In this document: positions 6,434-43,270 of the stretch, in pieces
Layout of the letters: each line of letters opens with the position of its first letter
Position numbering within the stretch: position 1 is the stretch's first letter
Source of the DNA: Candidatus Tayloriibacteriota bacterium
GTDB taxonomy: Bacteria > Patescibacteriota > Minisyncoccia > Phycocordibacterales > PALSA-1337
Length of the DNA: 64,000 nucleotides
Direction of reading: 5' to 3'
NCBI GenBank assembly: GCA_052034805.1
Contig: JBPOID010000007.1
Coordinates: 26,495 to 90,494, forward strand
Position numbers and translations under genes: made by a program
The notes under the pieces: model-generated
What the model saw: only the letters and a program-made list of their open reading frames with translations
What the model was told of the DNA's origin: nothing
Database searches by the model: none

Positions 6434-6484
6434 ATAAACTATAGGAATATTCTAGTATAGATGTAGTCATGTTATAATATTTGT

Positions 6485-7627
6485 ATGTTTTCTTTGAATT
6501 CTAAAAAGAAAGAAGAATTATCTCTTGTATTGGATATACAAAGTGATCTCGTACGCGCTGCGGTAGTACAATTCTGTCCATTAGAAAAGCCCCATGTGAT
6601 ATATTCTCTATCACAGCATATTTCTTTTGATTCAAAATTGAATGCTTCTAGAATGACTGATCTTATGTTAAAGGCAGTTTCTGATATAGGTATGAAATTG
6701 GTTAAAGATGGAATAAAGGGTATAAAATCTGTACATTATGTATTTTCTTCACCATGGGTTATACCACAATCCAAGACCGTAAAGATAGAATATGAAAATG
6801 AAATAGAGATAAAGGATTCTGTTGTATTAAATATTATAAATAAAGAAAGAAAGGAATTAATAGCTAAATTCAAAGAAAATAATCTTAACAATGAATACGA
6901 ATTCGATATTTCTTTTATAGAAGAAAATGTCTTTGATGTTCGTTTGAATGGATATTCTGTAACTGATTATAAAGGCAAAAAAGCAAAATCATTGGAAATA
7001 TCTTTCGCTACAACACTTAGTTCATACAGAATATTAGATAGAATAGATAAAACAATAAAGAATACTTTAAAGATCAAAAAGGTACATTATCATTCTGCAT
7101 TATTATTGAGATATACAGCCCTTCGTTCACTTATCGATAACAAAGATGAGTATATATCAGTTCATATACATGGAGAGCTTACCGATATTGTAGTTGTAAA
7201 AAGGAATTTCAGTTCACATTTAGCTTCTTTTCCATTCGGCAGAACTACTATTTCTAGGAAATTATCTAATTCTACTAGAAGTACTATGCAGGCTATAGAT
7301 TCTTCTATATCTATGTATGAAGATGAAAGATTAGAAAGATCAGAACAACAGAAAATAATGAAACTCATTCAGCCTATAATAGAAGAATGGAAAAATCAGT
7401 TTATGAATTCAATAAAGAGTATGGGAGAAAATGAAGCAATACCGCATTCTGTATATTTATCTACTCATCGTCATTTTAAACTTTTTAAAAATATAATAGA
7501 GTCTGAGAAATTTGAGGTATTTACTATGGATGATAATTTCGTTGATAAGTCTGTAATATTCGATAGAGCCATAGATAGAAATTCAATAATAGGTATATAT
7601 GCATTTGCTCTAAATGATATGTTATAA
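6485..7627 (+). CDS. Hypothetical protein, divergent actin-like ATPase fold (PilM/FtsA-like)
   Basis: Phosphate-1-like LVLDIQSDLVRAAVV and phosphate-2/adenosine-like VHIHGELTDIVVV motifs resemble Hsp70/actin-fold ATPases. The canonical glycines are replaced. Confidence 0.3.
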   Translation: MFSLNSKKKEELSLVLDIQSDLVRAAVVQFCPLEKPHVIYSLSQHISFDSKLNASRMTDLMLKAVSDIGMKLVKDGIKGIKSVHYVFSSPWVIPQSKTVKIEYENEIEIKDSVVLNIINKERKELIAKFKENNLNNEYEFDISFIEENVFDVRLNGYSVTDYKGKKAKSLEISFATTLSSYRILDRIDKTIKNTLKIKKVHYHSALLLRYTALRSLIDNKDEYISVHIHGELTDIVVVKRNFSSHLASFPFGRTTISRKLSNSTRSTMQAIDSSISMYEDERLERSEQQKIMKLIQPIIEEWKNQFMNSIKSMGENEAIPHSVYLSTHRHFKLFKNIIESEKFEVFTMDDNFVDKSVIFDRAIDRNSIIGIYAFALNDML

Positions 7628-26636: not shown

Positions 26637-27530
26637 TTGAAAAGAAGGAAAAAACCTATGAAAAACCTCAGTCTCAGTCTCGGTATTCACAGGAAGTGGG
26701 TTCGTTTCGTGTTTATGGCCTTCATGGCCATCTTCGTTCTCGGTGCGCAGGTTGTCTCGGTGAAAGCTTCGATCAGCCCTCCGCCACCACCTAATACTGA
26801 TTACTGGTATGTAGGTACGCCGAAATTCACCGGTACGTATCTTTCTGGTCCCACTCTAACAATGTGGGGTACTCCTGTGGGTAGTGGCTTTACTTACTCC
26901 CCACCTACTGATGCCCTCGGGGTAGATCCTTTAGGATCTACTGCAATGTGGCTAATGATTCGTACCTCATCAGCGTCTTACTCTAAAGCTAGTACGATGG
27001 TAAATGGATTCTACAAAACCGACGGGTCACCAGTGGCAAGGTATATTTCATTCTGGTATCAAACCTCGGATGTGTCACTAGGTTCTCCATTGCAGGTAAA
27101 ATTGGGGAATACGGTGATAGCAAGTATTACGGCGAATAAGTCCAGTTGGACCAGATTTGAGACCGTAGCTAACACAACATCCACAGGACAATACGAACTC
27201 TCTTTTCTCCTGAATAGGGGATCAGCTCCAGGAACGGTATTTCCTCAAGCGAAAATCGATGCAGTTCATTGCATACCAGATTTTTCGGTTCCACTTTCAA
27301 CTCCACCAAGTACTTCTTTCAAGATTTCTGGTGGAAAAGTAAAGTGGAAATATAGTGACTACGGGGACTTTTTCTTTTTGGTAGAGAAATCAAGTCTTGC
27401 TCCTGGTGCTTGGACCATGAAGACATCAGGTATAACTCTTGGTGCGGACGGGTGGTGGACATACACCATTCCTACTGGTGCAAATCACTTCTACGAATTA
27501 TACTCGCCATTGAATGCAAGCGGTCTCTGA
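26637..27530 (+). CDS. Hypothetical secreted protein (signal peptide, poly-Pro stretch)
   Basis: Signal-like N-terminus followed by SISPPPPPNTDYWY. About 48-50 % GC, far above background. Clean terminator downstream. Confidence 0.5.
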   Translation: MKRRKKPMKNLSLSLGIHRKWVRFVFMAFMAIFVLGAQVVSVKASISPPPPPNTDYWYVGTPKFTGTYLSGPTLTMWGTPVGSGFTYSPPTDALGVDPLGSTAMWLMIRTSSASYSKASTMVNGFYKTDGSPVARYISFWYQTSDVSLGSPLQVKLGNTVIASITANKSSWTRFETVANTTSTGQYELSFLLNRGSAPGTVFPQAKIDAVHCIPDFSVPLSTPPSTSFKISGGKVKWKYSDYGDFFFLVEKSSLAPGAWTMKTSGITLGADGWWTYTIPTGANHFYELYSPLNASGL

Positions 27531-27599: not shown

Positions 27600-28169
27600 T
27601 TATGGTTTTCTACCTTTACCCAAGGTTATTATTGCAGTCATCATAGAATTAGTGATTATCATAGCTATAGAATGCAATGTAGTTGCTATATTGTATGATT
27701 GCAATGAGAATAATGCTAATATATGGCGTAATACATTTGCGCTATATAGTATTGGAGTTTCTGATTTTGGATTTTGCCAAGTTTTCCTAAGTGTAGGTAT
27801 AAATGCTATGAGATCTATAGACACGGCTATTATTACTGATACTGTAGGGTCCTTTGTTATTATCCAAGGGATAATTCCGAGTAATGCTATAACAAAGAAA
27901 ATTGTATCGGATATTAGTATTTTCTTGAATCCGTATTGAAGAGAGAATATGAAAATTAATAGAGTAAAGATTTCTGAAGCAGCTGTAGGCAATGCTCCTA
28001 TGCCTGCTCCTTTTGCTAATTGACCAAAGAATGTTATAGCAGAAACTGTAGTCCATACCATCCATGTATATGGATGAGGTTGTACTCTTCTTTTAACTAT
28101 ATCTATGAGATAAGGTATATTACCGACTACTGCTAGAATTGCTGCTATTATTGCTAATGTTTCTTTCAT
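27600..28169 (-). CDS. Hypothetical polytopic membrane protein, paralog A (partner at 36076..36630)
   Basis: About 6 TM segments. Shares the motif IAFIPTLRKTWQNPKSE with IGFIPTLQSVWTKPQNE of the second copy. Confidence 0.5.
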   Translation of the reverse strand: MKETLAIIAAILAVVGNIPYLIDIVKRRVQPHPYTWMVWTTVSAITFFGQLAKGAGIGALPTAASEIFTLLIFIFSLQYGFKKILISDTIFFVIALLGIIPWIITKDPTVSVIIAVSIDLIAFIPTLRKTWQNPKSETPILYSANVLRHILALFSLQSYNIATTLHSIAMIITNSMMTAIITLGKGRKP

Positions 28170-30740: not shown

Positions 30741-30969
30741 ATATTTCTTCTAGTCTTTAGGTATAAGGTATAAGCCGACTAGTATCTCTTTATTTCCAGA
30801 AGAATATATATGGATATAGAGATATAACTTAACTCTGTGAGTATATTACATACTGGCTATTTTGTCAATATTAACGTCTAATTATATATATTATTCTATA
30901 AAGAGCTTATATTAGACATTATATTAACACTTGCATTATATCTATATATATGGTATAGTTATATACAGT

Positions 30970-31236
30970 ATGGTTCTCAACAAAATCGAAGAGGGGAAAT
31001 TGGCGGAAGTCAAAGCGATTTGGAGAAGAATTTACCTTCATCCGGATCAGGATTTCCTTAATCAGGCAACCAATATGGTAGCATCTTTTTTGAAGGATCT
31101 GAGAGAAAAAGATCCAACATACAAGGATGTGTATCTTTGGCACATGCTTTCTGGTAGTACCGGTGGTACTATCTTTGACTTCGGGGGTGAATTGATTTAC
31201 ACCTTTATGAAGGAAATGGAAAAGAGGATTCCATAA
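30970..31236 (+). CDS. Hypothetical small protein (GC-enriched)
   Basis: Start chosen at the internal Met (MVLNKIEEGK) of ORF 30931..31236. About 42 % GC. Terminator hairpin immediately downstream. Confidence 0.3.
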   Translation: MVLNKIEEGKLAEVKAIWRRIYLHPDQDFLNQATNMVASFLKDLREKDPTYKDVYLWHMLSGSTGGTIFDFGGELIYTFMKEMEKRIP

Positions 31237-31254
31237 AAGAAATTCCTCAATCAA

Positions 31255-31287
31255 AGAACCGGCCCTAAAGGTCGGTTTTTCTTTTTA
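31255..31287 (+). terminator. Intrinsic terminator
   Basis: aaccggccctaaaggtcggtt followed by tttctttttaat. Confidence 0.5.
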
Positions 31288-31319
31288 ATATAATAGAAAG
31301 TATAAAATAAAAGATAATA

Positions 31320-31350
31320 GAAAAAGCGCGGGGCAGGCCGCGCTTTCTAA
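31320..31350. terminator. GC-rich bidirectional terminator hairpin
   Basis: agcgcgg-ggcagg-ccgcgct flanked by A-run and T-run. It serves the minus-strand gene 31381..31641. Confidence 0.55.
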
Positions 31351-31380
31351 TTTTGTCGTCCCTTGGGAGACGATGTATTG

Positions 31381-31641
31381 TTACGCCGCGATGGCGTGAT
31401 GTTCTTGAATCCTTGGCAAAGCCATAAGGAAACCGAGAAACGTATTCTCTGTAACAATGACTCCATCTGCTTTTTGGACATTATGAGTCATCTCTGTATT
31501 CGTGGGTATAGGATCAACTTCCATACGGAAGCTGTATCTTGTAAGTCTCGTAGCTTTTTCTGGTGTAAGCTCCGAAGCTTGTCTCGTGAATTCCTCGAGA
31601 CTTTCAGTGTCTCTCAAATCTAGCAATACCATAAGTTTCAT
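31381..31641 (-). CDS. Hypothetical small protein (GC-enriched)
   Basis: 86-aa ORF, about 47 % GC, with its own terminator. No family recognised. Confidence 0.35.
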   Translation of the reverse strand: MKLMVLLDLRDTESLEEFTRQASELTPEKATRLTRYSFRMEVDPIPTNTEMTHNVQKADGVIVTENTFLGFLMALPRIQEHHAIAA

Positions 31642-33272: not shown

Positions 33273-33974
33273 ATGATAAAAAAAGATAAAGGTTTTACTC
33301 TTATTGAACTTCTAGTTGTGATTTCAATAATAGGATTATTATCTACTGTTGTTCTAGCTTCCGTATCTGATACTAGATATAGAGCGATAAATGCCACTGT
33401 ATCTCAAGAAGTACGCAATCGAGAAACTGCAATGAATTTGCTTTTGGAAACTACTGATAGAGCATTCCCTGATCCTGGTAATACTTCTATGCCTGGTAAT
33501 ATAGTTGGTATAGGATCTTATTATTGTTTTGCAAAGAATGAGACAGATTGTTATTTTGCTGACACTTTGCTTAGTAGTGCTCCTATAGGTAATGGACTAT
33601 ATTCATTATTCAAAGCAAAAGAAGAAGATCCTCTCATGTTATCTCAATTAGCTACAGTTGGTGGAGGTCCACAAGCCGAATCATATTATTTGAATAATTA
33701 TATTGCTCCAGCAACTTATAAATATGGAACAGTAAAGGTTGGTCCACATAATAAAAGTTATAGTGTCGGTATTTTCTATAGATGTGCTACATCTGTTGTG
33801 AAAGATGGACTAACATACTGTTCTGGTGCAAATATATATTGGGTTCAAGTTAATTCTAGTATATGTAGGAATGGTCAGGTATTACTTTCTGGTGGCGGAA
33901 ATAATAATGTTCTATGTTATCAGGGTGCAGATGGAAATCCACCTTATGGTACCGAAGATACTAGTATTCTATAG
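33273..33974 (+). CDS. Type IV pilin-like protein (prepilin N-terminal domain)
   Basis: Short leader MIKKDKG followed by FTLIELLVVISIIGLLSTVVL. Confidence 0.7.
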   Translation: MIKKDKGFTLIELLVVISIIGLLSTVVLASVSDTRYRAINATVSQEVRNRETAMNLLLETTDRAFPDPGNTSMPGNIVGIGSYYCFAKNETDCYFADTLLSSAPIGNGLYSLFKAKEEDPLMLSQLATVGGGPQAESYYLNNYIAPATYKYGTVKVGPHNKSYSVGIFYRCATSVVKDGLTYCSGANIYWVQVNSSICRNGQVLLSGGGNNNVLCYQGADGNPPYGTEDTSIL

Positions 33975-35236: not shown

Positions 35237-35331
35237 TGAATTTTATTTTAAATTTTAATTATCTATATTTTATAATAATCGTCTATAATAGGCAAAATTG
35301 TTTAATGTTTTAGTATTTGTATAGAAATGAA

Positions 35332-35634
35332 TTATTTTCTGGGTGGTCCCCATTGCCATCTAGGTTTCTCTCCTTTTCTATAACAGATAAATATCAGAAG
35401 GGCAGTCGATATAATAATAGGCAATGCAAATGTAAGGAAATTACTTCCTGAATCAGGATTTCCTGGTATAGATTCTTCTCTTGTGAGCACAAGGGTTAAT
35501 ATAAATGAAATATATAGAATAATGACAAGCCATCCTTGCCATTTCACAGGTGTCCAACCCCAGCCATAGAGTTTAGCTTTGAACCAATAGCCTTTTGGAT
35601 TGTCTTTGAAGTAATTTATATAGTCTTTGATCAT
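35332..35634 (-). CDS. Hypothetical small membrane protein
   Basis: 100 aa, Trp-rich N-terminus (YGWGWTPVKWQGW), two hydrophobic helices. Confidence 0.35.
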   Translation of the reverse strand: MIKDYINYFKDNPKGYWFKAKLYGWGWTPVKWQGWLVIILYISFILTLVLTREESIPGNPDSGSNFLTFALPIIISTALLIFICYRKGEKPRWQWGPPRK

Positions 35635-35701
35635 GTGTGTATTTTAACAGAGATTAAATGGAAATAGTAATGATTGGTTGTAATATTATTTTATATAAAA
35701 G

Positions 35702-35726
35702 AAAACGCATCTTTCTGAGATGCGTT
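35702..35726. terminator. Perfect 10-bp hairpin terminator (bidirectional)
   Basis: aaacgcatct ttctg agatgcgttt flanked by T-runs on both strands. Confidence 0.6.
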
Positions 35727-35742
35727 TTTGATTCTCTTAAAA

Positions 35743-36045
35743 TCAATCTAAGATCCCACATTGACCCTGATTGGGGATCCAAAGCACCGCTTCAGGCCAC
35801 TTTAGAGTTGATCTTTGAAGATTTTGAGGAAAATGAATGACTCGTCCGTCAGGGAAATGGGTGATTTTCGAAATCTTTCCTAGAATCGTCCCCCATTCAC
35901 CATAATAACGGTGTGAGATAAGAATCTCTGTTCCGTTCGAAAGTGCTTGTTCAAAAGCTTCTTTCGATGGGATATTGTCACGCTTAATCCCTATAAAGAT
36001 ACTTCTGGGATTTGAAGGGTAGCCATTTCGGTCTAGACGTGCCAT
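35743..36045 (-). CDS. Hypothetical protein (GC-enriched island)
   Basis: 100-aa ORF, about 47 % GC, followed by a terminator. No family recognised. Confidence 0.3.
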   Translation of the reverse strand: MARLDRNGYPSNPRSIFIGIKRDNIPSKEAFEQALSNGTEILISHRYYGEWGTILGKISKITHFPDGRVIHFPQNLQRSTLKWPEAVLWIPNQGQCGILD

Positions 36046-36075
36046 ACCTGTCCTTTCTTTTTTGAGTTGATGGGT

Positions 36076-36630
36076 TTAGCGAAGTGCGAGCAGTACCACA
36101 ACGAGGTGAAGCCATAAGCAGTTCACAGGATAAACCAAATCTTGCTTTTGTCCTTTCCACCGGAGAATTACAACGATGGTTTGAAAAGCAAACGAGATGG
36201 TCCATAGAAACCAGCATAGGGCGATTTCATTTTGAGGTTTTGTCCAGACACTTTGCAATGTCGGGATGAAACCAATGGTTATACCGAGCTGGAGCATCAT
36301 ATTGGTAACAGTGGGAGACTTGAGTTTCCACCACAAGAGACTTGCTGTGATACCAATCACGAGAACAATACTATCATTTGTACTCAATCCTTTGAGTTGT
36401 CCTTGGAAAAGGGTAAGTAAAAAGGTAAGTATGCATTGAATACTGCTAATGGTTGGAAGAAGACTCTTCCAACCATCCTTGCTCATCGCTTTATAGGAAG
36501 TGAAATTAAGGAGCGTCATAAAGCCCCATACTGCCCATGAAGTGATATTGGGATTGGCATGTCCTTGTAAAGTCTGCCAATTATAGATACCGAAAGCGAG
36601 AACATTTATAAGTCCCGCCATAACACCCAA
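36076..36630 (-). CDS. Hypothetical polytopic membrane protein, paralog B (partner at 27600..28169)
   Basis: Shared motif GFIPTLQSVWTKPQNE and the same length and topology as paralog A, but in a GC-rich context. Confidence 0.5.
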   Translation of the reverse strand: MGVMAGLINVLAFGIYNWQTLQGHANPNITSWAVWGFMTLLNFTSYKAMSKDGWKSLLPTISSIQCILTFLLTLFQGQLKGLSTNDSIVLVIGITASLLWWKLKSPTVTNMMLQLGITIGFIPTLQSVWTKPQNEIALCWFLWTISFAFQTIVVILRWKGQKQDLVYPVNCLWLHLVVVLLALR

Positions 36631-36788
36631 AAGAATGTCTAGTTTCAGAAAATTTCCTCTGTATAGCCTGACGGGATTGTCAGTCTTTTATCATATTACA
36701 ATATAAATAGTATAAAGTCAAATATACTTTGGGTTAATCTAATCTCTAATTACAATACTTAATATTTCTATTATTTATTTTATATAAT

Positions 36789-37034
36789 CTAAGATTTCTT
36801 CCATCTAGGGGCGAATCTAATCATCCAAGCAAAAAATTTAGCTTTGATTGGACTAGTACCATTTTTTCTCATTTGTTCATAACAGACTTTCTGAAATCCT
36901 TTAAGATCTCCCTCATAACAAAGCTTTCCTCCTTTAAAACAATAACTACAATAACGTGGATTCTCACGATTATCTCCCATCGGGTCCATATTAAATGGCA
37001 TTAGACAACTCTCACAACTTTTTGTTTTATTCAT
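36789..37034 (-). CDS. Zinc-ribbon domain protein (Zn_ribbon_2-like)
   Basis: CESCLMPF...ENPRYCSYCFKGG pattern resembles the family CxxCGMPL...YCSYC. Confidence 0.5.
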   Translation of the reverse strand: MNKTKSCESCLMPFNMDPMGDNRENPRYCSYCFKGGKLCYEGDLKGFQKVCYEQMRKNGTSPIKAKFFAWMIRFAPRWKKS

Positions 37035-37065
37035 GGTATTTATTATATCACTTTTTATATAAAAA

Positions 37066-38532
37066 CTACTCTAAATCAAATCTAACTACACACTTATCAG
37101 CCCGTACTCTCGGAAGATTAAGTCTACTCCATTCGGTATCGCCACCTTTGAGACTTATAGCTTTTATTCCAACTTGCTCGGCTTTGTAAGCGGCCAATCG
37201 GCTTGTATTGCCACGTCTGCAGACAAATATGACAGCTGTATTTTTGATCAGGTTTTTCTTGTTCTTTTTGAGATAGTCATCAAGACTATGAACTGGGACA
37301 TGGATTGATCCAGGAATATGATGGTCCTCGTACTCGCTATCATTTCTTACGTCAATAACAAGATAGCCATCTTTGTGAGCAATTTCTTCTTTATGCTTAA
37401 CTTTCTCCCAAATTTGTTCAGGTGTTTCGGTAAAGAGTAGTGAAAATGTCTCCTGTGAGTCGAGTTCTTTGATAGTTGGAATAGGTGTGGCAGGAATATG
37501 AGCGCCTTTTTCTTTGAGTAATTGCTCGTTTTCAATTTTTGGAAAATGTGACGGGTCGAGGTATTCAAAATACTCATCAATATATGGAAATGGACTATCA
37601 GGACAGACAAATACTGCAATCTTTTCCTCGCCAGACAATCTTTGCTTTGAAAGATGATTGAGAAGACCGACAAGCGCAAAGCCAGAACTTGGTCCGACAA
37701 AAAGTCCTGCACGACAGAGGTCCATAGACATTTTGAATGATTCGGTTGTGCCGATTTCTACCTGATGATCAAGTACAGACTTCCAGTCAAAGGCAATCTC
37801 TCGTAAGAGATTGTTTGTTCGCACCCCGGGTACTGGGTTGTTGGCAATACGAGATACTCCAACTATTTCAATGTCTGACTTTTTCTCTTTGAGATATGAA
37901 CCGATACCAACAACTGATCCAGTCGTACCAAGACCAACTGATAACATCGATATCTTGCCCTTAGTTTGTTCCCATATCTGCGGACCAGTCCATTTGTAGT
38001 GAGCGGCAGGATTGGCCTCATTGTCATATTGACCAGGATTAAACCATCCTTTTTCCTTGGACCACACTTTTGCTTTGTAGATTCCGCTTGTAGGATCGCT
38101 TGGATCAGGACAGATCGGCTCTTTATTGACGATAACTTCGTTACCGAGGAATCGTAGGATATTCAATTTGCCTCGGCTTACCTCATGAGACACAACTGCC
38201 TTGGTGTGGGGTATGCCCATAAGTCGTGCTATAACAGCCAGTGAGAAAACAGTATTGCCTGAAGAATTTTCGATAATAGTATCAGGCAATAATCCTTTTT
38301 CTTTACGGTCCAAAAGCATATTGTATGCAGGCAATGACTTTACATTCGCAAGTGGCAATGCATTCATAAGCTTGGCAAAAATACGCACGCCGTCTTTGCG
38401 ATACGGATTCAGGTGGTCGGGTATCTCTACAAGTGGCGTGTATGGCGCATTGTCGGGGTTGAGAAAATCAAGAACAGCGTCGCTGCCTTCAAAAGTATTG
38501 AGTATTTTTTGTTCGTTAGTTTTTGGAATCAT
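37066..38532 (-). CDS. Fusion of a PLP-dependent cysteine-synthase-like (fold type II) enzyme with a rhodanese domain
   Basis: N-terminal TPLVEIP...NVKSLPAYNML...GTTGSVVGIGSYL matches the CysK/CBS-family layout. C-terminal YLVIDVRNDSEYEDHHIPGSIHVP...FVCRRGNTS is a rhodanese with catalytic Cys. Confidence 0.6.
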   Translation of the reverse strand: MIPKTNEQKILNTFEGSDAVLDFLNPDNAPYTPLVEIPDHLNPYRKDGVRIFAKLMNALPLANVKSLPAYNMLLDRKEKGLLPDTIIENSSGNTVFSLAVIARLMGIPHTKAVVSHEVSRGKLNILRFLGNEVIVNKEPICPDPSDPTSGIYKAKVWSKEKGWFNPGQYDNEANPAAHYKWTGPQIWEQTKGKISMLSVGLGTTGSVVGIGSYLKEKKSDIEIVGVSRIANNPVPGVRTNNLLREIAFDWKSVLDHQVEIGTTESFKMSMDLCRAGLFVGPSSGFALVGLLNHLSKQRLSGEEKIAVFVCPDSPFPYIDEYFEYLDPSHFPKIENEQLLKEKGAHIPATPIPTIKELDSQETFSLLFTETPEQIWEKVKHKEEIAHKDGYLVIDVRNDSEYEDHHIPGSIHVPVHSLDDYLKKNKKNLIKNTAVIFVCRRGNTSRLAAYKAEQVGIKAISLKGGDTEWSRLNLPRVRADKCVVRFDLE

Positions 38533-39484
38533 GGCTAAAAGTAAATTCAGGGTCTATTTGGTTTGTAAGATCACCGAATCGTTCTTTTACAAAACCCTGT
38601 GCGACGTATTTTTTATGTAATTCCCAGATTTTTTTGAGTCTCGCATCTCGATTGTCTGGTTCGGCATTTAATGTACTAAAAACTTTCTCAAGTAATTCTT
38701 GATTATTGATATTAAGTTTCGATACAGACAATGCGGCACCATCTTGGTCGATAGTGCGAATATGTTCGTCATCAGTGAAGAATCCGATGATCTTTTTCTC
38801 GGTAATATGCGATTTTATAAATTCCATATCATTATCATTTCTGATTTTGTTACCAATTACTCGCACGCTATCTGCGACATCGGCTTCAGTCGCCAATTCC
38901 ATGTATTTGGTATAAACCTCAATACTTCGCATGGTTGGTTCAACGATGAGGCAGGTCAGATCGAACTGAGCATGAAGTGTCCCTGCAAATGAATCTACCC
39001 CTGCGACCATATCAGCAATTACATAGCCGTTCTTGTCGTCGGTGTGATTCAAAATGCTTTCGAGGATGGCAAGATTGTTGTGATAGCAACTAGCGCCGAT
39101 GTCTTCTTCTTGGTAGGTACCAACCGCAAAGACAGAAAGATTGCCTCGATGAAGTCCGTACGAGCCGATAGGTGTCTCCTTGATTGATTCAATTTTTATA
39201 ATGTTCGACTTGCGTGTCGGCGGTGTTGATTTGCGGAATGCACCAAGGTTTGTAATGTCGTTGTTACCAATAAGCCACTTTTTTATTTCCTCTGACACTT
39301 TCGGGTGCGATAGATGTTTATCGAAGGGAATACCATCAAAACCAAGTAGCTCTGGTGCATGGATGTTGAGATCAGCATCAAAAACAGCTACCTCTTCGGT
39401 AGTCTTTTTTGAAACATATGTGGCGAATGAGGCGGAAAGCGTACTCTTGCCCGATCCGCCTTTTCCAACAAAGGCGATTCTCAT
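38516..39484 (-). CDS. MinD/ParA-superfamily P-loop ATPase (CooC-like)
   Basis: Deviant Walker A IAFVGKGGSGKST and downstream VFDAD. Overlaps the PLP/rhodanese gene by 17 nt. Confidence 0.6.
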   Translation of the reverse strand: MRIAFVGKGGSGKSTLSASFATYVSKKTTEEVAVFDADLNIHAPELLGFDGIPFDKHLSHPKVSEEIKKWLIGNNDITNLGAFRKSTPPTRKSNIIKIESIKETPIGSYGLHRGNLSVFAVGTYQEEDIGASCYHNNLAILESILNHTDDKNGYVIADMVAGVDSFAGTLHAQFDLTCLIVEPTMRSIEVYTKYMELATEADVADSVRVIGNKIRNDNDMEFIKSHITEKKIIGFFTDDEHIRTIDQDGAALSVSKLNINNQELLEKVFSTLNAEPDNRDARLKKIWELHKKYVAQGFVKERFGDLTNQIDPEFTFSHDSKN

Positions 39485-39487
39485 ATA

Positions 39488-39835
39488 TTAATCGGTGCAC
39501 TTATTACAAGACCCTCGAACAGTAATATCTTCAACCTTATGACCCTTGATCGCTTTGTGGGGAATATGTATTTCTTCAACCTTTCCGCAATCATTGCAGA
39601 TGAAATGATCATGGCTTTCGTGAGCTGATTCATACGCCACAGACTTGTTATCAATCATCACTCTCTTTATCTTCTTGTCAGAGAGTAGTTGCTCGACATT
39701 GCGAAAGACTGTCGAATAATCGGCATCGGGAATAACTTTATGGATTTCAGCAATGGTCAAAAGATGCTTTTTCTTGAGCAATGTAAGTATATGTTCTTTG
39801 TATATGTTTGTTCTCATAATGCAAGTAATTTGCAT
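39488..39835 (-). CDS. Fur-family metalloregulator
   Basis: N-terminal winged helix, HESHDHFICNDCGKVEEI and a C-terminal CNKC. 4 nt upstream of the ATPase gene. Confidence 0.7.
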   Translation of the reverse strand: MQITCIMRTNIYKEHILTLLKKKHLLTIAEIHKVIPDADYSTVFRNVEQLLSDKKIKRVMIDNKSVAYESAHESHDHFICNDCGKVEEIHIPHKAIKGHKVEDITVRGSCNKCTD

Positions 39836-39900
39836 AATAAACTAAGACAAGAGAAAAGTAAAGTTCCAGATAATGCAGGAAAATGATAAAATGACACAAC

Positions 39901-41067
39901 ATGACACGATTACACAAAATTACGCTTGGTATGCTTTTTGCACTCTGCCTCGTATCTCCAGTATTGGTGCAGGCTCAAGAACTCATTCAGGATAAGGTAG
40001 ATATTATTCGAGCAAAGGTGCTTGAAATTGTAAAAGAAGAAGTTAAAAATGTTCCCGGAACAGATATTCGATCACAAAATCAGACAATCAAGGTTGAAAT
40101 TCTCGAAGGAAATGAAAAAGGAAAACAGCTCACCGTCGATAACGATTACTTAAATCTAGATGTTGGAGAAGTCTTTTATTTGAGACATCAATATGGTGGT
40201 ATGGATGGGACTAACTATTATTCAGTCGATGAACCGTATCGTCTACCTCATGTACTCATTCTCGTAGCTCTTTTTATAATTGCTATTTTTGTATTTGGTG
40301 GCATTCAAGGTGTGCGTGGACTGGTGAGTCTTGTCGGTAGTTTTCTTTTGATTATGTACGTGCTCTTGCCTGGAATACTGCATGGATATTCGCCACTCTT
40401 AGTAACGATAGGTGTGTCTTCGCTCATTATCATCGTCGGATCATATATCACGCATGGTTTTAACAAGACGACAAGCTCGGCGGTTCTAGGAATGGTTATC
40501 ACCGTTATCATCACCGGACTTCTTGCTGTCTGGGCGGTCCATTTCACTCGACTCAGTGGCTTCGGTTCAGAAGAAGTTACTTATCTCAATCTAAATACGA
40601 GAGGTACACTCGATGTGATCGGACTTCTCCTTGGTGGAATCATGATTGGTCTCCTCGGGGTGCTCTATGACGTAGCTATTGGTCAGGCGATTTCAGTTGA
40701 GGAGTTGATTCGCATTGCGCCTCATGTACCAAAGAAAACTATATATCAACGAGCGATCCGTATCGGCCGAGAGCATATCGGGGCACTCGTGAACACTCTT
40801 GCCATAGCCTATGTCGGTGCATCCTTGCCACTTCTGCTTTTGTTCGTCCAAACATCGACTTCGAGTCTTGCTAATATTGCTAACAGAGAAATATTTGCCA
40901 CAGAGATCGTCCGTACCATGATCGGTAGTATTGGCCTTATCTTGGCCGTACCTATTACAACCTTTGTGGCCGTTTGGTTGCTTATGAGTACGAAGAAGAA
41001 CAATGTATCGCAGGAAAAACTACAGCAAGAACAAGAGGCGCTGGAACATGCCGGGCATCATCATTAA
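39901..41067 (+). CDS. Polytopic membrane protein, possibly YibE/F-like
   Basis: Signal peptide, about 100-aa extracytoplasmic domain, then 7-8 TM helices. His-rich C-terminus (HAGHHH). Confidence 0.35.
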   Translation: MTRLHKITLGMLFALCLVSPVLVQAQELIQDKVDIIRAKVLEIVKEEVKNVPGTDIRSQNQTIKVEILEGNEKGKQLTVDNDYLNLDVGEVFYLRHQYGGMDGTNYYSVDEPYRLPHVLILVALFIIAIFVFGGIQGVRGLVSLVGSFLLIMYVLLPGILHGYSPLLVTIGVSSLIIIVGSYITHGFNKTTSSAVLGMVITVIITGLLAVWAVHFTRLSGFGSEEVTYLNLNTRGTLDVIGLLLGGIMIGLLGVLYDVAIGQAISVEELIRIAPHVPKKTIYQRAIRIGREHIGALVNTLAIAYVGASLPLLLLFVQTSTSSLANIANREIFATEIVRTMIGSIGLILAVPITTFVAVWLLMSTKKNNVSQEKLQQEQEALEHAGHHH

Positions 41068-41257
41068 TTTAGTATAGATATTGCACTAGATATAGGAACC
41101 TTTTGGAAGAGAAATTATGCCAACATTTGGCTATAAAATGAGAAGCAGGGTTTTTTTGGAATTGTGAGGATGAGCGAGTAAGATTATTTAATGGAATATA
41201 AACAGAAAACCCACCATCTCACGACAGGGGTTCCTGTGCTGAGTTGGTGGGCTATGA

Positions 41258-41665
41258 TTAGAAACGAAGGTCAATCCGTGGAGCTGTAAAAATGAAGCCG
41301 TCTGCAGTCTGAAAGCAAACACATCCATTCACAGCAATACTCAAAGGTGTTTCGATAATCGTAACTTTTTGACCTTTTACGTATTCTTTCCACTCGTTGC
41401 CAACATATCGAACAACATTGCCAATCATCTTGTCTTCAAACCGAGTTGCAAATTGAATTGCTGTAGGTTTGTAGTCACGGATTTTTGCAATCTCTTCTTT
41501 GAGCTCTGGATACAGGCGCTCCATTTCAAGGAGACCGTTGTCGCAGAGATGGTGTCTGACTGAGTTCCAAAGGAACTTTGTTTCCTCGCTTAGCATATCA
41601 ATGTCTTTTCTGGTTGGTTGTTTAATTATGAAAATTGCTACTAAATGTAGTAATATCACATACAA
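41258..41665 (-). CDS. Hypothetical protein (true start probably the internal Met, MLSEETK)
   Basis: 135-aa ORF at the edge of the GC-enriched block. Confidence 0.3.
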   Translation of the reverse strand: MYVILLHLVAIFIIKQPTRKDIDMLSEETKFLWNSVRHHLCDNGLLEMERLYPELKEEIAKIRDYKPTAIQFATRFEDKMIGNVVRYVGNEWKEYVKGQKVTIIETPLSIAVNGCVCFQTADGFIFTAPRIDLRF

Positions 41666-41684
41666 ATAAATATGTCAAGTATTG

Positions 41685-41703
41685 GCTCCGCGACCAGGGC
41701 TCG
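41685..41703. repeat. 19-nt exact direct repeat of the tRNA-Asn 3' end (att-like site)
   Basis: gctccgcgaccagggctcg is identical to 43197..43215, which covers the discriminator, 3' acceptor strand and T-stem of the tRNA at 43198..43270. Confidence 0.8.
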
Positions 41704-41736
41704 GTCATTATGAATTGTAGGAAAGTAAAAATGGAA

Positions 41737-42168
41737 CTAAGACTCAGGAATTTGTTTCTTGTGTATAAATGATACAAAAGAAAAGATAACAGAAGATATA
41801 ACGCTAAGTGGCATCAAGGTTCTCCATATTGAATCCATTATAAGACCGTACTGAGGCATTGTTCCTCCGAATTGATAAGGAGTGAATATCATGATTACAT
41901 AAGAAACTAGCATACCGATAACAAGAATAAAGAAAGAAATCTTGCTCATTAGGGTGATTTTATTTTTGAATGCACAATAAATATAAAATATACCAAGATA
42001 AAGAGCTGTGATTGGAGCAAATAGTCGAGCGAAATATTGAGGATTGGTTATATGGGCAACTGAATATGAAAAATCATCATAAAACCAACTAAACATAATT
42101 ACACCAAAAATTATTAATGCTAAACCAAATAAATAGTGAAAAAATTTAATCATGGATTTATTATACAT
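41737..42168 (-). CDS. Hypothetical membrane protein (4 TM)
   Basis: 143 aa, hydrophobic, AT-rich. Confidence 0.4.
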   Translation of the reverse strand: MYNKSMIKFFHYLFGLALIIFGVIMFSWFYDDFSYSVAHITNPQYFARLFAPITALYLGIFYIYCAFKNKITLMSKISFFILVIGMLVSYVIMIFTPYQFGGTMPQYGLIMDSIWRTLMPLSVISSVIFSFVSFIHKKQIPES

Positions 42169-42329
42169 CCTTATGAATTGATCATCAATTATAAACTGTG
42201 CTCACAACGCTCCGTCTTTCTCGCCCTGATTCGTAGTAAAAATAGAAAACCCACCTATTTTATGATAGGAGGATTTTCTATTGAAATAGTTAAAAACTGA
42301 TGTTTTTTTAGGAAATCAATAATTCAAAA

Positions 42330-42854
42330 CTAATTTCTATAATCCGTCCAGTATTCTCCAGTATCTATAGATTTAATACAATATTTTTTGTATTCTCCAG
42401 TATTATCACAAATATTTTTATCTTTTTTTAAGAATGCTATTTTTGCAAAACATTCTCTATAGTGTCTTTCTCCAGAAGGGAGGTTGTAACATATATTTTC
42501 ATCTTTCAAATCATATGCTACAGATTGATAACATAATTCACTTGATTGAGTGTTCTGTGTTACTACAGTTTGTTTGCAAGCTTTAATATCTTTAAATTTA
42601 ATACCATAATCTGAGAAGCAATCATTTTTTACTTCAGGTATTAGATTACAAACATTCATATCTTTTAAGCTTATTGCTTCTCCAGAAAGACATTCTCCTT
42701 TATATTTTTCATTACTACATTTTTTAATTATTCTTTCACTTACATTATCTCCAGTCTCTTGTCGAATACCTAATGGTATGTTTTTTGATTTATATAAATA
42801 AAGACCACCCACAATAATTAATAAAATTATTGGAACTAAAATTATTTTTTTCAT
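42330..42854 (-). CDS. Secreted/anchored cysteine-rich repeat protein
   Basis: N-terminal signal/TM MKKIILVPIILLIIVGGLYLY followed by repeated C-x(n)-C units (14 Cys in 150 aa). Confidence 0.45.
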   Translation of the reverse strand: MKKIILVPIILLIIVGGLYLYKSKNIPLGIRQETGDNVSERIIKKCSNEKYKGECLSGEAISLKDMNVCNLIPEVKNDCFSDYGIKFKDIKACKQTVVTQNTQSSELCYQSVAYDLKDENICYNLPSGERHYRECFAKIAFLKKDKNICDNTGEYKKYCIKSIDTGEYWTDYRN

Positions 42855-42949
42855 TTATTTTTTACTAATAGAATTATAATACGACTCTTTAATTATAATT
42901 TATTTTAGATTATAAGTAAAAAGAGATAATTATTTTTTTAAATTTATCC

Positions 42950-43192
42950 TTAAATAGTAGCAAGATATATCTGAACAGTACCAATACCAATTGAAACAAT
43001 GATCGCAACTATTGCTAAATATAGAGATGATTTTGCAAAACGTTCGGAAGATTCTTCATTTTTCAATGCTAACCTTCTAAGTAGTTCATATTGAGAGAGT
43101 ACACCGAAACTAGGGTCTGAATTATTAATTATTTGAAATAATTCCTCTTCATTAAGTTTTCTCACATCTTTACCAAAATTTGTATTATTCAT
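42950..43192 (-). CDS. Small tail-anchored hypothetical protein (shortened from ORF 42950..43366)
   Basis: The long ORF reads through the tRNA gene. The start is moved to MNNTNFGK immediately downstream of the tRNA. C-terminal TM helix. Confidence 0.35.
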   Translation of the reverse strand: MNNTNFGKDVRKLNEEELFQIINNSDPSFGVLSQYELLRRLALKNEESSERFAKSSLYLAIVAIIVSIGIGTVQIYLATI

Positions 43193-43197
43193 TTCTG

Positions 43198-43270
43198 CTC
43201 CGCGACCAGGGCTCGAACCTGGGACATCCTCGTTAACAGCGAGGCGCTCTACCAACTGAGCTATCGCGGA
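43198..43270 (-). tRNA. tRNA-Asn (anticodon GTT)
   Basis: Reverse complement folds as a cloverleaf. Acceptor TCCGCGA/TCGCGGA, D-arm GCTCAGTTGGTAGAGC, anticodon stem CCTCG/CGAGG with loop CTGTTAA, T-arm CCAGGTTCGAGCCCTGG. No CCA encoded. Confidence 0.85.

Follow-up and report, generated by a model that had tools for sequence, protein, structure and literature searches.

A Fur-linked CooC-like ATPase and its aspergillomarasmine synthase-like partner enzyme in Patescibacteria

The ATPase CooC1 is the Ni inserter of carbon monoxide (CO) dehydrogenase, and the C-X-C motif of CooC binds Ni or Zn across the protein dimer. Aspergillomarasmine A (AMA) synthase, from the fungus Aspergillus oryzae (entries 8H4H and 8H4Q of the Protein Data Bank, PDB), joins O-phosphoserine to L-aspartate to give toxin A and, in a second round, AMA itself, whilst Fda4, a fungal enzyme from Fusarium poae that likewise combines a pyridoxal phosphate (PLP) domain with a rhodanese domain, condenses O-phosphoserine with L-alanine to form a C–N bond (PMC12751119; 10.1101/2025.10.30.685158). 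Recombinant Fda4 is active in an assay containing only the enzyme, PLP, dithiothreitol and the two substrates (PMC12751119). AMA is a ligand for Zn, Ni and Co but not for Mg, Ca, Mn or Fe (PMC8319579). The Nur box of the Ni-responsive Fur homologue of Streptomyces coelicolor reads tTGCaa-N5-ttGCAA (PMC2691836). Here we describe a locus in which a Fur-family repressor, a CooC-like ATPase and an AMA synthase-like PLP–rhodanese enzyme are encoded side by side. The locus lies within a GC-enriched block (35330-41703) of a 64,000-nucleotide (nt) stretch of DNA, referred to throughout as the window, from a Candidatus Tayloriibacteriota bacterium (Patescibacteriota; GenBank assembly GCA_052034805.1, contig JBPOID010000007.1, positions 26,495 to 90,494).

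Each of these proteins is of a known kind (an AMA synthase-like enzyme, a CooC-like ATPase, a Fur-family repressor) and it is their combination that is newly described. The literature that we searched contained no account of the combination, of such prokaryotic relatives of AMA synthase or of the operator described below, in line with the preliminary description of the locus, which was made from the sequence alone and knew of no pathway with this set of genes. Among the curated NCBIfam models, none names either the ATPase or the PLP–rhodanese enzyme. The interpretation that we put forward, as plausible but short of probable, is that the locus answers metal starvation by producing an aminopolycarboxylate ligand and passing on Zn, Ni or Co.

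Profile searches confirmed all of the domain calls made in the preliminary description (Fur, CooC-like ATPase, PALP plus Rhodanese, Zn-ribbon and YibE/F). For comparison, one genome per species was scanned, giving 80 loci with relatives of the PLP enzyme, in which open reading frames (ORFs) were called and searched with the window proteins; loci are referred to by L numbers, and taxon labels are those of the public records. Full-length PLP–rhodanese fusions with at least 1 kb of upstream sequence were present in 46 loci, and in 45 of these the ATPase gene lies directly upstream, on the same strand and usually overlapping. This neighbourhood search bears out the earlier proposal that the two proteins are true partners. 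Module loci carry the labels Saccharibacteria, Paceibacteria, Peribacteria, Dojkabacteria, Berkelbacteria, Woesebacteria, Uhrbacteria and Liptonbacteria, with further examples in small-genome metagenome-assembled genomes (MAGs) labelled 'uncultured Gammaproteobacteria' and in two archaeal MAGs. Clustering of neighbouring ORFs identified a Fur-family gene in 37 of the 52 ATPase-bearing module loci, a YibE/F gene in 11 loci, an ArsP_1 permease with a DUF1980 partner in three to four and S-adenosylmethionine (SAM) methyltransferases in about six.

The limits of the conserved unit are clear from the closest relative (L001), in which nucleotide homology (87.4%) spans 37063-41070, that is, from the stop codon of the PLP–rhodanese gene to the stop codon of yibEF. 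None of the 80 related loci contains the Zn-ribbon gene, the gene for the 184-amino acid (aa) membrane protein or either small ORF of the block. Given the span of the L001 homology and the lack of homologues of these genes elsewhere, the unit is therefore a four-gene cassette (37066-41067). The Zn-ribbon gene had been described as the fourth member of a tightly coupled minus-strand operon. Tight coupling holds for the first three genes, with 3 nt between the fur stop codon and the ATPase start codon and a 17-nt overlap between the ATPase and PLP–rhodanese genes, whereas the Zn-ribbon gene follows 31 nt after the PLP–rhodanese gene and is a local addition downstream of the operon. Judged from these comparisons, the conserved unit consists of fur and the genes for the CooC-like ATPase and the PLP–rhodanese enzyme, often with a divergent gene for a His-tailed YibE/F protein. 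In relatives that comprise the PLP domain only, at about 50% identity, rhodanese domain, ATPase and operator are all missing.

These PLP-only relatives form a sister clade (L048-L067, L071-L073 and L078; about 50% identical over residues 1-342) with hosts among the Proteobacteria, Actinomycetota, Chloroflexota and Acidobacteriota. Some of the genes adjoin ArsR-type regulators, MIP channels or amino-acid ATP-binding cassette transporters, a context too variable to interpret.

The best PDB sequence match of the window PLP–rhodanese enzyme is 8h4q/8h4h (E = 5e-81, 276 bits; 42.7% identity over 328 residues), followed by cystathionine beta-synthase at 113 bits (about 1e-31) and CysM at about 100 bits. 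A predicted model (predicted local distance difference test score, pLDDT, 86) leads Foldseek to the same two entries, with an E value of 2.8e-45 vs 4e-23 for others; Foldseek labels them as AMA synthase, apo and with O-phosphoserine, and the chain names include a rhodanese domain. The domain arrangement of the model is uncertain (predicted template modelling score, pTM, 0.69; full-length root-mean-square deviation to 8h4q about 20 Å). AMA synthase and Fda4 have the same fold-type-II PLP domain followed by a rhodanese domain, and the PLP lysine, the SSGNT loop and a VPG-R-[TS]..LL motif peculiar to this family are common to AMA synthase and the window enzyme. Across 52 bacterial sequences K65, SSGNT and GLGTTG (the PLP lysine and loops) are invariant, as are C141, R238, D394, R396, C438 and G441 (52/52), and the tail residue C481 is present in 50/52. 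The six-residue loop of the rhodanese domain reads C438-R-R-G-N-T-S. There are differences from the fungal enzymes too: AMA synthase has Ser where the bacterial family has the invariant C141, the bacterial family adds a C-terminal tail with a conserved Cys, neither a CooC-like partner nor control by Fur is reported for AMA synthase or Fda4 in the papers cited above, and Fda4 needs no partner protein.

The enzyme is not an ordinary CysK or CysM, an outcome for which the preliminary description had allowed: it scores 139 against a cut-off of 344 with the cysKM model, 135 against 394 with cysM and 115 against 351 with cysK, and the SVKDR motif is replaced by NVKSLPA. The rhodanese domain had also been taken as a sign of persulfide chemistry. 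The domain alone implies no such chemistry, however, because AMA synthase and Fda4, the nearest characterised enzymes with a PLP and a rhodanese domain, form C–N rather than C–S bonds from O-phosphoserine. By homology, the window enzyme is a prokaryotic counterpart of fungal AMA synthase, with a substrate and product that we predict below from this relationship.

The second conserved protein of the module, the ATPase, has CooC1 (3kje) as its best PDB sequence match (E = 3.4e-12) and carries the deviant Walker A sequence GKGGSGKST. Its AlphaFold2 model (pLDDT 92) again finds CooC1 as the best Foldseek match (E = 1.4e-13, template modelling score 0.76), which ParA, NifH and MinD trail by four orders of magnitude. 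The earlier assignment of this protein as CooC-like rather than a plain ParA partition protein is thus upheld, the scores with competing models being low (ParA_partition 20.9 vs 180, minD_bact 26.6 vs 213, minD_arch 43 vs 202). The two proteins have the Walker A form GKGGxGK[ST] in common, and the position of the metal motif aligns residue for residue, with C133 and H135 of the window protein falling on C112 and C114 of CooC1. In place of C-X-C, however, the window ATPase has C-Y-H, and C-Y-H-N is invariant in 47/47 homologues. It also adds to the CooC1 fold an insert of about 75 residues that contains an invariant TPP and a C-terminal extension of about 70 residues that ends in QIDxxF; the TPP motif and the QIDxxF extension are invariant in the 47 homologues. 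Whereas CooC1 serves CO dehydrogenase, the partner of the window ATPase is a PLP enzyme, and no CO dehydrogenase gene (cooS/acsA) occurs among the conserved neighbour families of the 80 loci or the scanned ORFs of the block. An exhaustive search recovered 179 representative clusters (E <= 1e-30, 50% identity), nearly all of them full-length, and all five remote members that were read (29-34% identity) keep C-[Y/F]-H.

The gene for a CooC-type ATPase lies next to that of the enzyme it matures. It is conceivable, then, though in our judgement distinctly unlikely, that the ATPase inserts Ni, Zn or Fe into the PLP–rhodanese protein as CooC does for CO dehydrogenase, the PLP–rhodanese protein being a metalloenzyme with C141, C438 and C481 as ligands. 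The product need not then be a chelator, and Fur control would match synthesis of the enzyme to cofactor supply. The strict coupling of the two overlapping genes would suit such an arrangement, as would the conservation of all three Cys residues in the bacterial family, at least one of which (C141) is not shared with the fungal enzyme; the fungal homologues, with no known ATPase partner, are without C141. We know of no PLP beta-replacement enzyme that needs a metal, however, and the domain arrangement of the model, on which the relative positions of the three Cys residues would depend, is uncertain. Moreover, the ATPase family is found without a PLP–rhodanese gene as well: in L089, a remote homologue adjoins a Fur gene and a radical-SAM gene, with no PLP gene.

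Evidence for metal control of the module comes from the regulator and its operator. The Fur domain of the window protein has the H-x-H and CxxC signature (HESHDHFICNDC...CNKC). The first ATG of the fur ORF (39835) falls within the operator, and we use instead the conserved start at 39817, which gives a protein of 109 aa and is backed by 109-aa calls in public assemblies and by the MRTN... start common to relatives. Immediately upstream is the single exact copy in the 64-kb window of the palindrome TGCAA-N5-TTGCA. Across 1.05 Mb of related loci there are 35 exact sites, vs 0.9 expected, nearly all of them directly upstream of the fur, ATPase or PLP gene; the palindrome is found upstream of ArsP_1 permease genes also (L010 and L018). 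In a hold-out locus that was fetched later for another purpose (L084), it lies exactly at the fur start. In the window, the operator abuts the –10 box of the promoter-like site for the fur-ATPase-PLP genes, and the arrangement CTTTAC...TAnnnT is kept upstream in L001, L002, L005, L007, L049 and L068. With the operator at both divergent promoter-like sites (Table 1), one operator can thus control both units. The conserved Fur-type operator on its promoter indicates that the module is probably metal-regulated, as the preliminary description had suggested.

The operator has the same half-sites and spacing as the Nur box (6-5-6, with the core TGCAA-N5-TTGCA) but differs from it at the outermost positions, which are A/T in the module. 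The module regulators themselves resemble Nur no more closely than they do Fur or PerR, and Nur (3eyy) ranks below both. The Ni site of Nur includes H70, H72 and H126; an RHxH sequence occurs in the corresponding sheet region of some module regulators, a correspondence that falls short of a residue-level alignment with Nur, and is not present in the window protein.

Table 1 Features of the island and its surroundings (window coordinates)
Feature	Position	Strand	Remarks
Bidirectional terminator-like hairpin	35701..35729	.	13-bp stem, T-run on both strands
100-aa ORF, island cargo	35743..36045	-	GC 0.43
184-aa multi-pass membrane protein, island cargo	36076..36630	-	Weak DUF6962 match only; not conserved with module
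81-aa Zn_ribbon_2 protein	36789..37034	-	PF12674 at 7e-10; GC 0.34
488-aa PLP–rhodanese enzyme	37066..38532	-	PALP 3e-46, Rhodanese 2e-15 (residues 385-470)
322-aa CooC-like ATPase	38516..39484	-	CbiA/MinD-type ATPase 9e-10; overlaps PLP gene by 17 nt
Fur-family repressor gene, 109 aa	39488..39817	-	PF01475 at 9e-13
Promoter-like site facing yibEF	39811-39838	+	Consensus scan; operator within its spacer
Operator palindrome TGCAAGTAATTTGCA (TGCAA-N5-TTGCA)	39820..39834	.	fur/yibEF divergent promoter region
Promoter-like site for fur-ATPase-PLP	39834..39862	-	Consensus scan: -35 TTTACT, 17 nt, -10 TATTAT
388-aa YibE/F membrane protein	39901..41067	+	PF07907 at 5.5e-67; divergent from fur
135-aa ORF, last GC-rich island gene	41258..41665	-	GC 0.395, third-position GC (GC3) 0.375
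att-like direct repeat GCTCCGCGACCAGGGCTCG	41685..41703	.	Identical to 43197-43215, tRNA-Asn 3' end; 0 matches expected in shuffles
tRNA-Asn(GTT)	43197..43270	-	ARAGORN and Rfam; only tRNA in window; 3' end is second repeat copy

The divergently transcribed YibE/F protein has a signal peptide and a His-rich C-terminal tail (EHAGHHH). Such tails are common amongst module-linked YibE/F proteins, 8 of the 11 homologues having at least three, and as many as ten, His among their final 30 residues. Searches for a solved structural relative of the protein found none. In L006 (6268-6843) and L007 (3909-4544), a 190-210-aa His-rich membrane protein (e.g. HQENHDTHSHEHEN) occupies the YibE/F position; it belongs to no Pfam family, is divergent from the module and shares its operator.

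How might these components work together? In the metal-starvation reading, the Fur-family repressor is predicted to bind TGCAA-N5-TTGCA over both divergent promoters and, if it follows the sensing logic of the Fur family, metal scarcity would release both. The PLP enzyme would turn O-phosphoserine into PLP-aminoacrylate and combine this with the alpha-amine of an amino acid, yielding a 'marasmine'- or toxin A-like aminopolycarboxylate ligand for Zn, Ni or Co. The ATPase, translationally coupled to the PLP enzyme, may bind metal at its dimer interface via C-Y-H, with ATP driving passage of the ion among the ligand, the partner enzyme with its Cys-bearing rhodanese domain and tail, and client proteins. 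The His-tailed YibE/F protein would move the metal or the complex across the membrane, a role that in other genomes could be taken by the ArsP_1/DUF1980 permease pair or by another His-rich membrane protein. Together these parts would give organisms with minimal genomes a compact way of coping with metal starvation. Arguing for this are the gene linkage, the operator, the likeness to AMA synthase and to CooC1, the C-[Y/F]-H motif kept even by remote ATPases, the Fur neighbour of the L089 homologue and the His tails, to which may be added two further kinds of comparison, with variants that carry carboxyl-methyltransferase-like proteins and with distant gene clusters.

The variants place a methyltransferase in close company with the module. 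In L025, L039 and L066, a methyltransferase gene lies between the ATPase and PLP genes; in P0102, seen in two independent assemblies, the methyltransferase is fused to the PLP–rhodanese enzyme in a fur-ATPase-fusion operon; and in P0291 a methyltransferase is fused to the ATPase. The P0102 methyltransferase domain is most like CmoM, BioC and Tam, all of them carboxyl O-methyltransferases, with scores below their cut-offs.

Outside the Patescibacteria there is a distant version of the pair, the ATPase being 34% identical with C-Y-H and the PLP–rhodanese protein 28% identical with CP[DN]P and PG-RT. In the operons of L088 (8337-20495) and L090 (3277-9091), it is accompanied by an ornithine/diaminopimelate-type decarboxylase, an NNMT/PNMT-type methyltransferase and a SufS-family desulfurase. 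L088 additionally encodes a fusion protein of a second ATPase and a HAD hydrolase, a cystathionine-gamma-synthase-like enzyme, an amine oxidase resembling N-methyltryptophan oxidase and a divergent fragment resembling the L-serine kinase SerK. The L088/L090 operon is probably a gene cluster for a small molecule, and the presence of a decarboxylase, a serine-kinase-like gene and an amine oxidase would, by analogy, follow the logic of chelator pathways of the SbnI/SbnA/SbnH and ethylenediamine disuccinate (EDDS) types. Other remote ATPase relatives with C-Y-H precede a 730-aa YcaO protein in L092 (8001-11357), where a 37-aa ORF intervenes, and in L093 (7939-11295). Near the ATPase in these two loci are genes for an ArsR-type regulator, a TonB-dependent receptor, TonB and a heme-oxygenase-like protein, and a peptide-derived metallophore locus using the same ATPase is possible. 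In L094, an ATPase relative is found near an Aminotran_5 gene.

A number of observations weigh against the metal-starvation reading. Its substrate, product and metal are read from sequence relationships; assignment of the regulator to Fur, Zur, Nur or PerR was attempted and is not possible from sequence; and most loci are without an obvious exporter or importer. C–N chemistry does not explain the strict conservation of Cys438, Cys481 and Cys141, and the rhodanese domain and ATPase are gained and lost together, the PLP-only relatives having neither. A fusion of the ATPase with the PLP–rhodanese enzyme, P0118, is seen on one 4.3-kb contig only. Finally, the desulfurase beside the pair in L088 is a strong SufS-family match (E = 9e-85) and, with the YcaO and radical-SAM neighbours of other relatives, it points to sulfur chemistry.

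Several of these observations would be better accommodated by a sulfur relay, an alternative that we regard as possible, if somewhat doubtful. Here aminoacrylate would arise from O-phosphoserine or, with the reaction reversed, from cysteine, and a persulfide on Cys438, resolved by Cys481, would give or accept sulfur. The outcome might be cysteine, a persulfide or a thiol-bearing ligand, with the C-Y-H ATPase acting as an ATP-driven carrier or scaffold for a metal–sulfur centre, such that the module would be a Fur-controlled functional analogue of SUF with its PLP enzyme, sulfur acceptor and ATPase. The invariant C-x-x-G-x-x-S loop with D394 and R396, the invariant C141 and near-invariant C481 and the co-occurrence of rhodanese domain and ATPase all fit such a relay. 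So do the SufS-family desulfurase in the L088 operon with the distant pair, the Aminotran_5 genes in L090 and L094 and the YcaO and radical SAM genes that adjoin ATPase relatives. Enzymes that form C–S bonds from O-phosphoserine do exist (Mycobacterium tuberculosis CysM with CysO; the archaeal O-phosphoserine sulfhydrylase, 1wkv), and the NifH and Mrp/NBP35 relatives of the ATPase fold hold Fe–S clusters at the same dimer-interface position. Yet the two characterised enzymes with exactly this architecture make C–N bonds, all of the curated cysteine-synthase models score far under their cut-offs and, to our knowledge, no fold-type-II PLP enzyme acts as a persulfide generator. No desulfurase is linked in about 50 loci of the Patescibacteria type, the associated methyltransferase resembles carboxyl rather than thiol methyltransferases, and one Cys plus one His per monomer would be an unusual ligand set for an Fe–S cluster.

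A broader proposal, which we think unlikely, would bring these relatives together: C-[Y/F]-H CooC-like ATPases may be an unrecognised class of ATP-driven metal or metal–sulfur hand-off proteins. Joined to the PLP–rhodanese enzyme, the ATPase would form a self-contained, SUF-independent machine that builds a thiolated chelator or a metal–sulfur centre in ultra-small symbionts, with Cys141, Cys438, Cys481 and the Cys and His of the ATPase as the relay, whilst elsewhere the same ATPase would serve YcaO, radical-SAM and desulfurase pathways.

We turn now to the setting of the module in the window. The preliminary description had recognised a GC-rich block, with GC content of 43-48%. The block is indeed elevated, at 40.1% GC over 35330-41703 compared with 32.0 ± 1.2% in 449 other 6.4-kb windows (maximum 34.5%), but 43-48% is seen solely in 500-nt peaks. 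The shift is greatest at synonymous sites: the eight genes of the block have a GC3 of 0.37 vs 0.22 ± 0.08 outside it, and the tetranucleotide distance to the rest of the window peaks at 0.39 over the block vs about 0.13. The genomic signature is thus not uniform, the block deviating in GC, GC3 and tetranucleotides, and the deviation in the last two measures shows that the composition is foreign and not an effect of amino-acid content. The left edge, previously placed at 35330, is in fact at about 35.7 kb, where the hairpin listed in Table 1 marks both the edge of the island and the end of the minus-strand transcription unit; GC content to its left is at background level, and the ORF at 35332-35634 is outside the island. 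The right edge is, as first described, the tRNA-derived repeat, which matches the 3' end of tRNA-Asn exactly over 19 nt.

The two copies of this repeat do not bracket the GC-rich block but rather a 1.5-kb segment beside it (41704-43196, GC 0.23-0.30). This AT-rich segment encodes a 143-aa membrane protein (41737-42168) and a 174-aa Cys-rich secreted protein (42330-42854) but not an integrase, and it resembles what is left of a small element that entered at tRNA-Asn, either later than the GC-rich island or next to it. A third att copy was sought at the left edge of the block, and none was found with up to three mismatches or by local alignment. Recombinase domains are absent from the block proteins in Pfam and PHROG scans. 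The layout of the repeats is consistent with successive insertions at tRNA-Asn. In L002 and L007, the module has a tRNA-Asn gene 2-4 kb away in the same orientation, and no tRNA-derived repeats were found in L002, L005 or L007.

Could the GC enrichment be intrinsic to the module genes? In 43 other genomes, module GC tracks that of the host (0.27-0.72), its mean being slightly below that of the flanks, which rules this out. Since module GC follows the host elsewhere, the enrichment here therefore marks the block as an island recently acquired from a donor with about 42% GC and adjoining tRNA-Asn. In L004, L005 and L068, the contrast is in the opposite direction, with the module some 9 GC points (about –0.09) under its flanks. 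A large serine recombinase adjoins the module in L004 (4836-6197), L005, L012 and L023, and in L005 the recombinase is followed by tRNA-Met (6439-6510) directly upstream of fur. The recombinase and tRNA-Met neighbours, with the GC contrast in L004 and L005, suggest that the cassette rides integrative elements. Other sources of the block were also considered. Rfam gave tRNA only, so that noncoding RNA is not the source of the GC-rich patches; phage cargo was rejected, with no meaningful PHROG match and the PLP–rhodanese gene absent from IMG/VR viral contigs; and none of the eight block proteins matches an anti-phage defence system in PADLOC.

Horizontal mobility is what might be expected of a resistance island, and the module could be imagined to conjugate, methylate or export a toxic metal or metalloid ion, although we consider detoxification very improbable. 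ArsP_1-family permeases, SAM methyltransferases and a MerC gene lie near some versions of the module, ArsR-type regulators and MIP channels lie near the PLP-only relatives, and the ATPase has a weak match to ArsA. That match covers the P-loop only, however. When the operator sits on the –10 box, a Fur-family repressor typically lets its genes be switched on under scarcity, the core module has no sensor of the ArsR, MerR or CsoR type, and no efflux P-type ATPase or cation diffusion facilitator is linked.

Of the remaining genes of the island, the 100-aa ORF has no match in Pfam, NCBIfam, PHROG or PADLOC, and the 135-aa ORF has no significant Pfam, NCBIfam or PHROG family. The 184-aa membrane protein had been described as a paralogue of a protein encoded at 27600-28169 of the window; this relationship is real yet distant (26% identity, E = 6e-13). 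Two other GC-rich patches lie to the left of the island. One (26637-27530) encodes a 297-aa secreted protein with a signal peptide and a PPPPP run (GC 0.455, GC3 0.41) and no Pfam or PHROG match, and the other (30919-31623) is a pair of short ORFs (GC3 0.41-0.53); Rfam reported no family at either. Just outside the island, at 33273-33974, is a type-IV-pilin-like protein with the N_methyl signal GFTLIELLVV, typical of Patescibacteria and in keeping with the taxa to which the nearest relatives are assigned.

Ultra-small symbionts, Patescibacteria among them, are thought to synthesise hardly anything of their own. If the metal-starvation reading is correct, a conserved, mobile and metal-regulated ligand operon would show how such organisms compete for trace metals on their hosts. 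It would also provide a prokaryotic source of, and context for, aspergillomarasmine-type chelators, which are of clinical interest as inhibitors of the NDM and VIM metallo-beta-lactamases. CooC-type ATPases would extend beyond CO dehydrogenase to at least 179 clusters at 50% identity with a metal motif of their own, and the operator would offer a defined site for mapping the metal regulons of uncultured lineages.

Beyond AMA synthase, CooC1 and Nur, the module invites comparison with two further groups of known systems. The first is concerned with sulfur. CysM with CysO and the archaeal O-phosphoserine sulfhydrylase are likewise O-phosphoserine-dependent PLP beta-replacement enzymes, CysM drawing on a protein-bound sulfur donor, and SUF resembles the module in that Fur controls its PLP enzyme, sulfur acceptor and ATPase. 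The core module differs: it lacks a ThiS-like carrier, none of its proteins is homologous to SufBCD, SufS or SufE, and SufS is a fold-type I enzyme. The second group comprises chelator pathways. SbnA lacks a rhodanese domain, and the window enzyme scores 109 bits with its family model against a cut-off of 350; the module has no SbnB-type oxidoreductase or siderophore synthetase of the nonribosomal peptide synthetase-independent type, and the Sbn and EDDS pathways have no CooC-like ATPase. In its logic, however, the staphyloferrin B pathway (SbnA, SbnI and SbnH) is, as the module would be, a metal-regulated route to a chelator built on a CysK-like PLP enzyme that uses an amino-acid amine and O-phosphoserine. 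The distant pairs strengthen the likeness with their ornithine/diaminopimelate-type decarboxylase and, in L088, a serine-kinase-like gene, and the Zur-regulated EDDS (aes) cluster of Amycolatopsis japonicum is a chelator pathway of the same kind.

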